NCBI GenBank assembly: GCA_016906335.1
Contig: JADEYG010000001.1
Span: forward strand, 1,550,001 to 1,614,000
Length of the DNA stretch: 64,000 nucleotides
Direction of reading: 5' to 3'
Source of the DNA: Novakomyces olei
Lineage: Eukaryota
Every line of letters starts with the position of its first letter. Positions within the stretch are counted from its first letter, which is position 1. The notes beneath the pieces were generated by a model. The model made no database searches and was not told the origin of the DNA. It saw only the letters and a list, made by a program, of their open reading frames with translations. Made by a program: the position numbers and the translations under genes. Below are positions 55,700-64,000 of the stretch, in pieces.

Positions 55700-57499
55700 A
55701 TGCCATCAGACTCGGGTACTGCAGCAGACGAACTGCCAAAGGCAGTCGACAGTACAAAGGCAGCAATCCGTCCAGCGATCAAGTCATGGGCTGATGATTC
55801 TGGGGACGAGCTCGATACCATTACAACGGGCATCGCTGGCATGTCACAGAAAGAAAAAGGCAGTGATCACGATAATGCAAATAAAGGCGGTCTTTTCGGC
55901 CGCATTAAAGACGCAGACGAGCCATCGCAGGCAAAGGGAGCGGTGACGACGGAGAGTGAGGCTGGTTCAAATTTGGTTGCGAATAAGCACGATGTCAGTA
56001 TAAAATTAGCAGATCTTCAAGCAGACCCCAATTCGCCACTCTACTCTGTGCATACGTTTGAAGAGCTGAATTTGTAAGCTTTTTGTATATCGCCGTGCTG
56101 TGTGTGTCTGACTTTTATAGGAGCGAAAATCTGTTGAAGGGAATTTATGCTATGAAGTTTCAAAAACCTTCAAAGATCCAAGAGAAAGCACTCCCACTCT
56201 TGCTCTCGAACCCGTAAGGAATTTTACATATTTTTAATGGTTGAAGTCTATGACGCTCGAAAATTTATCCTTCTGTTTTTCGCTTTGTTCTGTGTTGTTT
56301 CGTTCGTTTCGTTTCATTTGTTTCGTGTTTGCTTTCGGTCTCAAGACTTTGCCGGAAAAAGGCTGTATTGTTTTTCTAACTTGAAAAGACCTCGCAACAT
56401 GATTGGCCAGTCGCAATCTGGCACGGGCAAAACCGCCGCTTTTGCTTTGACTATGCTTTCCCGCGTTGATCCACAGCAAAAATCACCACAAGCTCTTTGT
56501 TTAGCTCCGTCGCGTGAACTAGCTCGTCAAATTATGGATGTTGTAAAAGAGATGGGTCAGTTTACGGATATCAGTATTGCGTACGCCATCCCAGGATCGA
56601 CCGAGCGTGGAGCTAAAGTCGGCGCGCAAATTGTTATTGGCACGCCTGGAACAATGGTGGATCTCATCAAACGCCGGCAAATCGATGTTCGCGGGGTAAA
56701 AGTCTTTGTTCTCGACGAGGCAGACAACATGCTTGACCAGCAAGGATTGGGCGAACAGTCTATGCGGGTAAAAGGGTATGGACGACGATGATCATCACAA
56801 ACGTGTGTGTAAAAAATACTAATGGATAGAACACTGCCAAAGTCTACACAAATTATCCTGTTTAGCGCCACGTTTCCAACAGAAGTAGAAGGCTTTGCTA
56901 AACGGTTTGCACCCGACGCGAATGAACTGCGATTGAAGACAGAAGAACTCTCTGTGGAGGGAATTAAGCAGCTCTATATGGATTGTGACTCGGAGGAGCA
57001 CAAGTATAATGTACTGCTAGAGCTTTACGGCCTAATGACGATCGGACAGAGTATTATCTTTTGCAAGCGTCGCGATACAGCTGATCGAATTGCACGGCTG
57101 ATGCAAGCAGAAGGTCACAGTGTTGCTAGTCTACACGGAGCGCTTACTCCAGAAGAGCGTGACAAGGTTATCGATTCTTTCCGCCAGGGAAAGAGCAAAA
57201 TTCTACTTACTACCAACGTTATTGCTCGCGGAATCGATATCTCACAGGTCAATATGGTCGTGAATTATGATATGCCGCTCGATAGTAAAGGCCGGCCTGA
57301 TCCTGAAACTTACTTACATCGTATCGGACGTACTGGCCGGTTTGGGCGCGTTGGTGTAAGTATCAATTTTACTCATGATCGTCGGAGCTGGGAGGAAATG
57401 AATGCAATTCAAAAATACTTTAACAAGCCCATGATTAAAGTGCCCACCGACGATTTGGAGGAGTTGGAGCGTGTAGTGAAAGAAGCACTTAAAAGCTAG
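55700..57499 (+). CDS. DBP5: DEAD-box mRNA export helicase Dbp5 (4 exons)
   Basis: [61 protein letters not shown]. Confidence 0.97.
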
Positions 57500-57958: not shown

Positions 57959-58597
57959 CTACGCCATCCGTAAATCGCCTTCCACAGCGTCGACCTTATT
58001 CTTGTCAACACCAACTTCAATGTCGGCGTTTTTCACATCAGGGTTCTTGCGATAATAGTCCTTTAAGGCTGCAGCTACTGCATCTTGAGCCAGCATGGAG
58101 CAGTGCAGCTTCACAGGTGGTAGTGAAAGTTCTTTAGCAATAACGTTATTTTTGATTTTAGCCGCTTCTTCCAGCGTGAGGCCCTTGATGAGTTCCGTTA
58201 CGTAGCTGCTTGAGGCGATCGCACTTCCGCAGCCAAACGTTTTAAACTTGCATTCCGTAATGCGCCCATTCTCGTCCACACGAATAGCCAGTTTCATCAC
58301 GTCTCCGCAGGCCGGAGCTCCGACAAGTCCGATGCCGACATCCTGATCGCCCTTGGGAAGAGTGCCCACGTTACGCGGCGAGTTGTAGTGGTCAAGGACC
58401 TTTTCGTGGTAGGCGCGTTTCTGCAGAGCTCCAGCGGCTCCAGCCACCTCCACTTTGCGCAGAGTTCGTGGTGAAGCGCGGTTCGCTAGTAGTGAGGACA
58501 GACCGCGGCGGCCGATGCTTGCGCCAGCAGTTTGGCGGCCTGTTCGCAATAGAGCGCACGCACTCTGACGTGTAATATTCATCATTTGCGTATTCAT
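57959..58597 (-). CDS. ISU1: Mitochondrial Fe-S cluster scaffold Isu1
   Basis: Arg-rich presequence, YHEKVLDHY, GAPACGDVM, FKTFGCGSAIASSS, LPPVKLHCSML. Confidence 0.98.
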   Translation of the reverse strand: MNTQMMNITRQSACALLRTGRQTAGASIGRRGLSSLLANRASPRTLRKVEVAGAAGALQKRAYHEKVLDHYNSPRNVGTLPKGDQDVGIGLVGAPACGDVMKLAIRVDENGRITECKFKTFGCGSAIASSSYVTELIKGLTLEEAAKIKNNVIAKELSLPPVKLHCSMLAQDAVAAALKDYYRKNPDVKNADIEVGVDKNKVDAVEGDLRMA

Positions 58598-59532
58598 AGT
58601 GCCAAGTTCTCTTTTCTCGTTGTCTTGCAGAGGGAGGAAAAGTTAAGGGATGAAAGTTAAACTTGATCGGTCAAAAGTATCTTATAAAAATCGATGCCGA
58701 TTATATCATATCTTGCTCACGAAAAGTCTGTACAGGGTTTTCTGGGTTTATTAGGGTAATCAACCCTCGTTCTGGAATAAACGCTCTACAGATAATATGA
58801 GATTGAGACGTCGGCCATAAGCATCCTGATTTTACGTAACCCATATCTGAGTGTTTAAGTAATACAATTTGGTATTGCTTATCACTGATACCAATTTGCC
58901 AGAGCGCGAGACAGATTTGTATAATACTGACACTAAGTGTTCCAACAAAGGTGGCTAAAACATCGTCTCTTCCAGCCTTGTAAAAATTTGAATATCCCTT
59001 TACAATCTAAAATTCTTGAATACTAAAAATTTGGAAAATGGTGCTTCAATTACAAGATTTGGATCCTGCTGCAGTAACATGGAAAGCTTAATTACATACT
59101 GCTCATACTAATCTGTATTTATCTACGAGTAGCAAAACCTAGGATATCAAAGAAAGTATTTACAAAAAATTAACACCATAAGCGAATGAGTAGTAAGAGA
59201 TAAAATATTGAGTAATTGTGATAGATAATCGATAATACATAAAATCAAAAATTAAATAAAAATTAAATAAAAAAAAAAATAAAAAAAAAATTGACCCAGG
59301 ACCAGACCAACCAAGGCGACAGAGGCACTTGTTTTCAACCAGCGGTTGGACGGTTTCAAAAGTGGCTTCTTTCCACGTAATCGCAGTCGCGTTGAGAACC
59401 GCTACTGCGGGTGCCTCCTTTTGCACAAGAATTGGCCGCCAAAACTGTGTGTTGAGAAAGAATTCCAGCATACTAAACAAATCTGCTTTTGCAATCGGAC
59501 ATCGTCGCTTTTTCGCCTCATCGCCGACAGCA

Positions 59533-62500
59533 ATGCCAGCTCAAATCATTGACGGAAATGCCACTGCAAAGTAAGGCTTTAAACTGTACCCAGTTTTCAT
59601 TTATCTACTCAGGCTCAAGAGCCAACAGTTGTCTGTGTCTAATAATTTCGCAAACAATTCCTTACGTATAGGGCAATCCGTGAGCAAATTGCAGAGGCAA
59701 TCCGCACTACTGGCATACGCCCCAGTCTGGCCATTGTGCAGGTAGGCGGCCGTGAAGATTCATCGCTCTATGTGCGCATGAAGGAAAAAGCTGCAAAGGA
59801 AGCCAATATCGCTTTTCGTCATATAAATCTGCCGCAGGATATCACCCAGGACGAGGTATTTGTCACGCCATAACTTTTCAAAATGATTACTATTCATTTC
59901 TTTGTATTCAGTCTATTGCTTTTTTTCTCTATTGCTCTATTGCTCTATTGCTCTATTGCTCTATTGCTCTATTGCTCTATTGCTCTATTGCTCTATTGCT
60001 CTATTGCTCTATTGCTCTATTGCTCTATTGCTCTATTGCTCTATTGCTCTATTGCTCTATTGCTCTATTGCTCTATTGCTCTATTGCTCTATTGCTCTAT
60101 TGCTCTATTGCTCTATTGCTCTATTGCTCTATTGCTCTATTGCTCTATTGCTCTATTGCTCTATTGCTCTATTGCTCTATTGCTCTATTGCTCTATTGCT
60201 CTATTGCTCTATTGCTCTATTGCTCTATTGCTCTATTGCTCTATCATCGGATTATTTGAATACCGTGCCACCATTCCCTTGTATTTAATTATTTCGTACT
60301 TTTTCATTTCTAACACTGCACAGCTCATCAAACACATCCATGCTCTAAATCTCGACCCGAACGTGCACGGTGTGCTCGTACAATTGCCCATCCCTGCTCA
60401 TTTGTCAGAGCAGGCTGTAACTGCGGCAGTTGCCCTGGACAAGGATGTTGATGGTTTCGCCGTTGCCAATATAGGAGAGCTGGCGAAGAAGAACGGTCAC
60501 CCTTTATTCGTGCCGTGCACGCCCAAAGGCATCATATACCTCTTGGACGCGTACAGCATCGATATTCGTGGAAAAAGAGCCGTTGTTTTAGGCCGCAGCG
60601 ATATTGTTGGGAACCCAGTAGCGTATCTCCTTCGTAACCGTGATGCCACTGTGACCGTAGTCCATTCGCGCAGTGACAATATACGGGAGATTGTACGTGA
60701 GGCGGATATAGTAGTGGCGGCAATTGGACAGCCTCAGCTTGTAAAGGCCGATTGGATCAAACCCGGGGCAATTGTAATCGATGTGGGTACAAACTATGTG
60801 CCCGACGCTACACGCAAGTCGGGCCAGAGACTCGTGGGCGATGTTGACTTTGAAGAGGCCTCTAAAGTGGCAGAGTACATTACTCCCGTCCCCGGAGGAG
60901 TGGGCCCTATGACCGTTTGCATGCTTATGCAAAATGTATGGGAGTCTGCACAGAGGCACCACCGAGCTCGCCGGCTGCAGCCACTACCCTTAACTCTTCT
61001 GGACCCGGTCCCCTCTGATCTGGCAATTGCGAGTGGTCAGAGGCCTAAACAGATTGCTCAATTGGCACAGGAAATTGGAGTTTTGCCAGAGGAGTTAGAG
61101 CTGCATGGGTCCTACAAAGCCAAAGTCAGTTTGGACGCATTGGACCGTTTAGCGGATCAGCCAAACGGCAAGTACGTAATCGTTACAGGCATCACACCCA
61201 CACCAGCGGGCGAGGGCAAATCGACGACAACGTACGGACTGGTACAGGCACTCGGAGCAGAGTTGGGACTGAACGCCTTTGCCTGCGTTCGCCAGCCCTC
61301 TCAGGGCCCTACCTTTGGCATTAAAGGTGGAGCCGCTGGTGGAGGCTATGCTCAGTGTATTCCCATGGACGAGTTCAATCTGCACATGACCGGTGACATT
61401 CACGCTATCGGAGCGGCCAACAATCTGTTGGCTGCCGCTATAGACACACGTATTTTCCATGAAAATACGCAAAAAGACAGGGCACTGTTCAGCCGGCTAG
61501 TTCCGGAGAAAAAGGGGGTCAGAAAGTTTGCTCCCGTAATGTTCCGTAGGCTGCGTAAACTGGGAATAGCAAAGACGGACCCGAACGATCTGACAGAGGC
61601 AGAAGTACGTAAATTTGCTCGTCTCGATATCGATCCGGACACTATTACGTGGCAGCGAGTGTTGGACGTGAATGACCGTTTCCTCCGTGGCATAACTATC
61701 GGAGAGGGCCCCAATGAGAAGGGCATGACGCGTCGGACTGGCTTTGATATTACTGTGGCCAGTGAGTGTATGAGCGTACTGGCTCTGACTACGAGTCTGC
61801 GGGACATGAGAGAAAGACTTGGGGCAATGGTAGTTGCCTCCAGTCGCAGCGGTGACCCCATCACTGCTGACGATCTCGGAATCGGTGGTGCTTTAGCCGT
61901 TTTAATGAAGGACGCGCTTAAACCGAACCTGATGCAAACGCTGGAGGGCACTCCAGTGTTTGTCCACGCTGGGCCTTTTGCCAATATCTCTATCGGCCAG
62001 AGCTCTGTGCTGGCGGACAAGTTGGCCCTTAAACTCGGCGATTATTGTGTAACTGAAGCAGGGTTTTCTTCCGAGATTGGACTGGAAAAGTTTTGCAACA
62101 TTAAATGCCGGTCTAGCGGTCTCAACCCGGACTGTGCCGTCCTTGTTGCCACTGTCCAGGCACTCAAGATGCATGGCGCTGGTGATTTAGGTAATGGATG
62201 TGCTAATATGGAGAGGCATATTGAAAACTGCCGTCGCTACAATATCCCTGTCGTTGTAGCAATAAACCGCTTTGCCACCGATACGGCAGAGGAAATTGCT
62301 CTCATCCGTGAGCGAGCTGCTGCTGCTGGTGCAGACGCGGCAGTGCCTACTTTTCATTGGGCTCGTGGAGGCGCTGGCGCTCGTGATCTGGCTCAGGCTG
62401 TTGTGCAGGCGAGCGAAAAGCCCAGCAAGTTTGAGTACCTCTACCCTCTCGATCTGCCGCTCAAGGATAAAATAGAAAAAATTGCGTGTGAAATGTACGG

Positions 62501-62801
62501 TGCCCGGAGTGTGGAGTACGCACCACTCGCTCTGGACCGTATTGACCGGCTCACACGTCAGGGCTATGCTGGCCTGCCTGTCTGTATTGCTAAAACACAG
62601 TACTCTTTGTCCGCCGACCCAGAGCTGAAGAATTCTCCACGCGACTTTGTCGTGCCCATCCGCGATGTACGTTTGTCCGCCGGCGCCGGGTTTGTTTACC
62701 CTCTGACGGGTGCTATTCAAACGATCCCGGGTCTGCCTACTGCTCCGGCTTACTTGAACATCGACGTGGACGATGAGGGGAACGTTGTAGGCCTTTTCTG
62801 A
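59533..62801 (+). CDS. Trifunctional C1-tetrahydrofolate synthase (Ade3/Mis1 family; introns 59571-59671, 59856-60323; probable N-terminally extended isoform)
   Basis: [46 protein letters not shown]; synthetase domain [33 protein letters not shown]. Confidence 0.96.
59928..60244. repeat. (CTATTGCT)n 8-bp satellite, about 39 copies, inside C1-THF synthase intron 2
   Basis: Perfect array between a GTATTT donor (59856) and a CTAAC...CAG acceptor (60323). Confidence 0.97.
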
Positions 62802-63374: not shown

Positions 63375-64000
63375 CTAGTCAAGCACACGTGGCGCACTCG
63401 TCCCTTCCTCAACGGCCAAGTGCGCCAGCGCATTTTGGCCGTGCAGTAAAAGCTCTTCTGATATTACGAGTGTTCGAGTTATCTGCTGCTCAATCTCTTG
63501 AGCGGCTTCCAGCAAACTTGGCGCCTCCTGGTCTTCCGCGTCTTCACTAAACTCGACAGACAGTGTCGCACGCGGCATTCCGGTACGAACTTGTTGCCTT
63601 AACCTTTTAATTTCCAACGTCTGTGCCCGCAGTTTCGACTCCAGCTCCTTGTTTATAGCCCGGAGCGAATCGTTCTCTAACCGTGCATCCAGCATCTTGG
63701 GTTAGCATCAACTCCTCTGCACATTTCCCTTTTTCCTTGTTTTATTTTATTTTCAGCTCATTTTCATTTTCTTCTTTTCTTTATTTTCTTTTTTTCTTTT
63801 TTTCTTTTTTTCTTTTTTTTTCTTTTTTTCTTTTCTCCCTTGTTTTTGTTTGTTTCAAATTTATTAATTTCAAACTTATTTAAAATCATCGTTCGCCTAC
63901 CCTCCTCTGGAAACGCGCAGTCTCCATATCATTCTCCGTATCGGCGTCGTCCGTCTCCGACCCGAGAGCGGTTGGAGACACCGGCGAGGCCGACGGAGAA
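63375..64000 (-). CDS. 3' part of an uncharacterised coiled-coil protein (intron 63900-63696; gene starts beyond the window)
   Basis: GTAGGC...GCTAACCCAAG intron joins ETARFQRR to MLDARLENDSLRAINKELE; heptad pattern. Confidence 0.65.

Follow-up and report, generated by a model that had tools for sequence, protein, structure and literature searches.

In a 64,000-nucleotide (nt) stretch of the Novakomyces olei genome (contig JADEYG010000001.1, positions 1,550,001 to 1,614,000, forward strand; called the window here and numbered from its first letter), we analyzed the gene for C1-tetrahydrofolate (C1-THF) synthase and the region upstream of its conserved start codon, ATG 59533. This gene, the only one for the trifunctional folate enzyme that was found in the genome, most likely carries a hidden mitochondrial leader that lacks an AUG of its own and would start at a GUG. 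A mitochondrial leader on a single gene argues that one gene probably supplies both the cytosol and the mitochondria. The initial annotation of the window had proposed a mitochondrial presequence on this enzyme and one gene serving two compartments, and both proposals are supported by the register of a cleavage motif, the single gene copy, the loci of a second folate enzyme and the composition of the leader. The features concerned are listed below.

59186–59192, plus strand: ATG in weak context (10th percentile) and 7-nt first exon of an alternative spliced model; unspliced, a 5-codon upstream open reading frame (uORF)
59193–59305, plus strand: candidate intron of the same model, with donor GTAAGA, branch point TTGAC at 59291 and acceptor 59305; otherwise an A-rich promoter or leader tract
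59260–59532, plus strand: 91 open codons that read into ATG 59533, without acidic residues from 59308 on
59356–59366, plus strand: proposed near-cognate start GTG 59362 in its context, TCAAAA GTG GC; the leaders of GLR1 and TRM1 likewise open with AAA GTG G
59362–59532, plus strand: proposed mitochondrial presequence of 57 codons, presumably translated from the GTG
59377–59414, plus strand: predicted RNA hairpin
59503–59535, plus strand: two-step cleavage motif, in two registers
59533–59570, plus strand: conserved ATG (context at the 87th percentile) and first exon of the cytosolic form
59571–59671, plus strand: predicted intron 1, GTAAGG...TAG
59672–59855, plus strand: exon 2
59856–60323, plus strand: intron 2, GTATTT...CTAAC...CAG, containing an 8-nt repeat array
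60324–62801, plus strand: exon 3, dehydrogenase/cyclohydrolase and formyl-THF synthetase domains

The leader and its gene

An in-frame stop, TAA 59257, is followed by 91 open codons (59260–59532) as far as ATG 59533, and between ATG 59186 and ATG 59533 the plus strand holds no ATG in any of the three frames, as the initial annotation had described. It had also given the last 68 codons as free of Asp and Glu, which is true of those codons but understates the run: the final acidic codon of the frame is GAC 59305, leaving 75 codons without an acidic residue. Among 20,000 dinucleotide shuffles of 59308–59532, a stretch picked after it had been seen, 2752 were open, 249 were acid-free, 18 were both and only 1 was ATG-free as well; openness taken alone is unremarkable. 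In 664 kb of the genome, 127 gene starts were predicted, and none had at least 75 open acid-free codons upstream; at least 76 open codons were present at seven of these starts, and 13 had no ATG within 347 nt. A sequencing error in the poly-A tract was rejected as the cause of the missing ATG, because ATG 59186 runs into a stop after five codons, upstream of that tract, and the other two frames contain no ATG.

The 57-residue leader predicted from GTG 59362 contains 8 Arg/Lys, no Asp/Glu and 19% Ser/Thr, and its hydrophobic moment by our own calculation is 0.57, compared with up to 0.53 for homologue extensions. An extension of at least 30 residues ahead of the conserved Met was present in 30 of 139 homologue models (20 of 87 in a first set drawn from 120 matches, and 10 of 52 in a further one), and in the first 20 of these extensions Asp and Glu made up 2.5% of residues versus 11.9% in the mature part. 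Two-step cleavage by mitochondrial processing peptidase (MPP) and Oct1 follows the motif RX|(F/L/I)XX(S/T/G)XXXX|, as given in PMC3128517. Counting the Met, the full Oct1 motif stood with its Arg at a distance of ten residues from the end in 11 of the 30 homologue extensions and also in the query. No other offset between 6 and 19 had the same motif in more than 2 extensions, and its background elsewhere in the extensions was 9 of 2047 positions. The 30 extensions are not independent observations, since the rows are kin to each other and are automatic gene models, and 19 of them lack the motif at that register. The query fits the motif both in the homologue register and in the adjacent one, so that the motif ends just before or just after Met 59533; the initial annotation had seen an MPP-like cleavage site at this end, and its reading holds. 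Occurrence of the motif in the homologue register makes a real presequence likely, and on these sequence features we are highly confident that the extension is a functional mitochondrial presequence.

Searches with the extension sequence returned 277 candidates, none at E ≤ 10, and a Pfam scan of the extension gave no family. Comparison with 1.84 billion representatives produced a single match, to a repetitive ankyrin-like protein, which was rejected as a repeat artefact. A metagenome scan for relatives yielded 80 loci at 50–66% identity, six of which were flagged as having extra or longer matches by a full-length homologue; none of the three inspected had a usable upstream frame.

The three exons join to an open protein of 899 residues, and exon 3 encodes PF00763, PF02882 and PF01268, each above its cut-off, as is proper to a trifunctional C1-THF synthase. 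A paralogue count, which the initial annotation had suggested, found one PF01268 match in the genome and hence a single C1-THF synthase; such copy counts are lower bounds, as the assembly may be incomplete. One further dehydrogenase match lies in a short gene (L002) with two dehydrogenase domains and without a synthetase domain, which we take to be MTD1-like. Two serine hydroxymethyltransferase (SHMT) loci were found, one of them with a presequence-like N-terminus, and a mitochondrial one-carbon branch is therefore likely to be present in this fungus. In a tree of 34 synthetase-domain rows, with one red algal row left out, the query fell outside the clade of Saccharomycotina and Pezizomycotina (support 100/100) and stood, with less than firm support (93/77), next to the Schizosaccharomyces proteins; the host is taken as a deep-branching ascomycete.

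Two further observations concern the gene itself. Its intron 2 contains 39 copies of the 8-nt repeat at 59929–60240, which kept the frames open and inflated the last exon to a false open reading frame of 975 codons. The synthetase domain lacks two segments, of 12 and 19 alignment columns, relative to five aligned ADE3-type rows; homologue P0001, 83% identical and encoded by a relative, has both gaps too, and the Schizosaccharomyces proteins do carry the second segment.

GTG 59362 and its counterparts in control genes

Start contexts were scored against 126 predicted starts of the same genome. GTG 59362 reached the 96th percentile and was the best candidate tested, with ATG 59533 at the 87th and ATG 59186 at the 10th. 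The near-cognate starts listed in the initial annotation, TTG 59329, TTG 59392, GTG 59449 and TTG 59452, are indeed present and in frame, but their contexts stand at the 0th, 19th, 2nd and 6th percentiles, and the list had left out GTG 59362. ATT 59290, ATC 59380 and ATT 59431 were placed at the 70th, 74th and 68th percentiles. A near-cognate codon with a context as good as that of GTG 59362 arose in 955 of 20,000 codon shuffles, or in 561 of 20,000 when CTG, GTG, TTG and ACG alone were counted. The gene thus has the layout of near-cognate dual targeting, an in-frame codon in strong context with no AUG before a strong downstream AUG. Non-AUG starts can be aided by downstream hairpins, and a predicted hairpin of −16.5 kcal/mol begins 15 nt past the G of GTG 59362 (z −2.05, equalled in 6 of 200 shuffles, for a 50-nt window; z −1.51, 17 of 200, for a 69-nt window).

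Seven genes that are commonly dual-targeted in fungi, chosen in part from PMC7049704, served as controls from the same genome. In HisRS, GlyRS, ValRS and CysRS, a presequence-like stretch follows a weak upstream ATG, and the second ATG is stronger; in AlaRS, GLR1 and TRM1, the open frame likewise resembles a presequence but no in-frame ATG stands upstream. In-frame AAA GTG G was present in two of the three ATG-less controls, GLR1 and TRM1, and in none of the four ATG-led ones; GTG 59362 had been singled out before the GLR1 and TRM1 sequences were examined. The GLR1 leader (L163 1329–1382, contig C7; a glutathione reductase family match) comprises 18 codons, is acid-free and Arg-containing, and starts GCAAAA GTG GC. 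No ATG lies within 293 nt upstream; besides this GTG, the 23 open codons contain none of the seven usual near-cognate codons, and no spliced alternative to it scores above −0.44. The TRM1 leader (L161 reverse strand, contig C12; TRM family) is basic, comprises 36 codons, starts TCCAAA GTG GG and lies upstream of ATG 1450 (reversed coordinates). By chance, in-frame AAA GTG G appeared in 366 (GLR1) and 287 (TRM1) of 20,000 codon shuffles, and in 45 and 53 base shuffles, respectively. The third ATG-less control, AlaRS (L144 1141–1395, contig C1), has 85 open codons, which include neither an in-frame ATG nor any near-cognate codon in strong context to start its probable mitochondrial form.

Taken together, these observations lead us to favor, as the probable course of events, initiation at GUG 59362 to give the 57-residue leader, leaky scanning to AUG 59533, and trimming by MPP and then Oct1; here and below, the odds given to the start models are our own judgement. 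A minority of ribosomes would start at the GUG, aided by its A-rich context and the hairpin downstream, and would produce a precursor with a matrix-targeting leader, while the majority, meeting no ATG on the way, would scan as far as the strong AUG 59533 and begin the cytosolic enzyme there. Once the precursor is in the matrix, cleavage by MPP after the arginine motif would be followed by the removal of a further eight residues by Oct1, so that the conserved Met either becomes the first residue or is lost with them. Either outcome would leave both pools with nearly the same N-terminus. Transcription through 59362, initiation at the GUG, import and cleavage are steps that we infer. Alternative transcription starts, which are described for some Cryptococcus genes in the main text of PMC7049704, could add to the cytosolic pool.

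Several observations weigh against initiation at GTG 59362. The downstream hairpin is modest, and AlaRS does without AAA GTG G, a string that appeared in 927 of 20,000 codon shuffles of the query's own 91-codon frame. The open acid-free frame runs 18 codons further upstream of the GTG, to acceptor 59305, with three Arg and one Lys in that part, and 27 of the 30 homologue extensions, though automatic models from other clades, exceed the 57-residue leader in length. The contexts and introns used here are predictions of a self-trained gene finder and not RNA-derived. In addition, of the eight matches to AAAAGTGGC that, besides the query, led in frame to an ATG among the first 100 considered, the four best were inspected and none proved to be a further GUG-led leader, the other four being judged from short translations only.

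Genome matches to AAAAGTGGC numbered 209, versus 132 for a reversed control, and nine of the first 100 of the 209 lead in frame to an ATG, compared with three and five in the shifted frames. Since no further GUG-led leader was seen among the matches examined, the AAA GTG G module is not common, as far as the first 100 of 209 matches go. The excess over the reversed control is not explained by GUG-led leaders in those first 100 matches. The protein predicted at L204 (reverse strand, contig C2, near 1206950) opens with a long run rich in Ala and Arg and poor in acidic residues, which may be a further targeting leader.

Alternative origins of the leader

The open frame could instead be entered by splicing. 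The initial annotation had joined ATG 59186 to it through an intron at 59193–59299; the ATG, the GTAAGA donor and this acceptor exist, the intron has canonical GT...CAG ends and the join is in frame, but the acceptor lies only 4 nt past the branch pentamer. For comparison, a gene finder was trained on 664 kb of the genome, and 102 predicted introns flanked by well-scoring exons were kept. A strong branch pentamer was present in 52 of them; from it to the 3′ end there were 5–10 nt in 49 introns, more in 3 and 4 nt or less in none, and AGs at +2/+3 were passed over in 4. The next CAG, 59305, lies at distance 10, is in frame and drops the last Asp; the fitted probability is 0.10 for this distance and 0.004 for distance 4, and the splice signal score is 4.14 (38 of 102 introns at or below) for 59305 and 2.12 (16 of 102) for 59299. 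If the intron is real, its acceptor is therefore more likely 59305, and the intron exactly as first proposed is very improbable. With acceptor 59305, ATG 59186 and a 7-nt exon would yield a 78-residue acid-free leader, the weak ATG would leak to ATG 59533, and intron retention would leave the 5-codon uORF. The donor is a common one (7 of 102), the branch-point distance is inside the usual range, and the junction falls at a GC step and removes the last Asp. The context of ATG 59186 resembles those of the four ATG-led controls, and 78 residues agree with the homologue extension lengths. On the other side stand the rare branch point (TTGAC, 2 of 102) and the ease with which such models arise: one scoring at least 4.14 is possible upstream of 17 of 122 other starts (5 of 122 with an acceptor 200–273 nt upstream), and CysRS, whose contiguous upstream ATG needs no intron, gives a spliced model of 6.72, so the score of 4.14 does not discriminate. 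The A content of the candidate intron, 0.59, also counts against it, being reached by 1 of 102 introns; in its favor, an equally A-rich intron is predicted 4 kb off at 63696–63900 on the minus strand, which has a strong branch point and, with an A fraction of 0.61, is the most A-rich of the 102. Order-2 Markov content leans weakly to promoter (as low in 7 of 156 intron versus 107 of 500 upstream segments); by a plain A/GC test, on the other hand, the two classes are barely distinguishable (3 of 47 versus 11 of 125). A spliced start also gives no account of the GLR1-like GUG context, and we consider it unlikely, though it is the strongest of the alternatives and GUG and spliced routes could coexist. 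The predicted introns of this genome show branch-point spacing of 5–10 nt and about 18% AAG acceptors. Short branch-point spacing and AAG acceptors are a fission-yeast-like pattern.

Initiation at one or more of the other near-cognate codons (ATT 59290, ATT 59431, ATC 59380, TTG 59329, TTG 59392, GTG 59449 or TTG 59452) has in its favor the fair contexts of the two ATTs and the ATC, AUU starts documented in fungi (main texts of PMC7049704 and PMC7214817), and a product of 81 residues from ATT 59290, close to homologue lengths. That product would carry two Asp within its first six residues, the four TTG and GTG codons rank no higher than the 19th percentile, and none of these codons has the context common to GLR1 and TRM1, which leaves this reading a slim chance. 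We give similarly little credence, if anything a shade less, to the view that the stretch is an untranslated leader or a relic, with the enzyme cytosolic only or with transcripts beginning just before ATG 59533. That view is in keeping with the want of codon bias in the extension (coding log-odds −2.1 in its own frame, −14.9 and +3.0 in the others), with the failure of the database and Pfam searches to find a sequence homologue of it, and with the 109 of 139 homologue models that begin at the conserved Met, although automatic models often miss such leaders. It is opposed by the single shuffle in 20,000 that was open, acid-free and ATG-free together, by the 0 of 127 other starts that are comparable, by the cleavage motif in a conserved register and by the lack of a second gene copy for mitochondria.

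Neighboring genes, related systems and significance

Divergent from the C1-THF synthase gene, and with a promoter region in common, is a gene at 57959–58597 on the minus strand with a NifU_N domain (ISU1-like), whose leader of about 60 residues has three in-frame ATGs, at 58597, 58585 and 58582. Further upstream, at 55700–57499 on the plus strand, lies a DEAD-box helicase gene with probably three introns, presumably DBP5-like.

Dual targeting by leaky scanning past a near-cognate or weak AUG start is already well known in fungi, and the gene analyzed here is probably a further case. Weak-AUG or near-cognate starts that add targeting sequence are described in the main texts of PMC7049704, PMC6582344 and PMC7214817. 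There is a close likeness to the 'DualNCC' fungal aminoacyl-tRNA synthetases (Wallace et al. 2020, PMC7049704), in which a single-copy gene combines an upstream weak or near-cognate start in strong context, a targeting sequence and a strong downstream AUG; unlike GTG 59362, the starts reported there are AUU and ACG and are backed by ribosome profiling. According to the same main text, weak AUG and near-cognate starts have been swapped for one another many times, and the single Cryptococcus genes PUS1 and GLO2 stand for S. cerevisiae paralogue pairs. The terms 'folate', 'ADE3' and 'MIS1' do not occur in that main text, nor do 'tetrahydrofolate', 'ADE3' and 'MIS1' in one of its supplementary files. 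In S. cerevisiae, non-AUG cryptic mitochondrial proteins similarly gain targeting sequence from upstream in-frame near-cognate codons, GUG included (Monteuuis et al. 2019, PMC6582344); the main text of that paper mentions neither ADE3 nor MIS1 nor folate. Ustilago maydis Pgd1 likewise hides a cryptic targeting signal in an apparently AUG-less 5′ untranslated region, but its signal is peroxisomal (peroxisomal targeting signal type 2, PTS2), its start is AGG AUU, and its case is experimental, with splicing excluded by RNA-seq (main text of PMC7214817).

The same three-domain enzyme is needed in both compartments in S. cerevisiae and fission yeast, where two genes supply it, MIS1/ADE3 and Ade9/Thf1, whereas one was found here; the MIS1/ADE3 split invoked in the initial annotation is stated in PMC9551070, and PMC10582590 counts ade9 of fission yeast as a mitochondrial gene. 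C1-THF synthase models of Pezizomycotina and Lipomycetaceae resemble the query in their basic, acid-poor leader before the conserved Met and in the register of the Oct1 motif (11 of 30), but they start at an upstream in-frame Met, are mostly longer and are predictions only. Title and abstract searches found no paper on dual targeting of C1-THF synthase from one gene, although supplements and subscription papers may hold one.

As the mechanism is already established, the gain is a new testable case and not a new principle. That the cleavage register is conserved points to an overlooked mitochondrial isoform for many fungal C1-THF synthases annotated as 'cytoplasmic', and the recurring AAA GTG G context offers a handle for finding hidden mitochondrial isoforms in this genome. 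More speculatively, AAA-GUG-G may be a shared lineage module that sets the mitochondrial share of C1-THF synthase, glutathione reductase and Trm1, and the ancestral ascomycete state may be one dual-targeted C1-THF synthase whose Oct1 site equalizes the N-termini, a state that budding and fission yeasts each gave up for a gene pair. We hold this combined proposal only tentatively; if it were true, the stringency of start-codon selection would act as a joint control on folate and redox capacity in the mitochondria. If initiation at GUG 59362 is right, the way this fungus balances one-carbon metabolism between mitochondria and cytosol would be set by one start codon, not by two genes.

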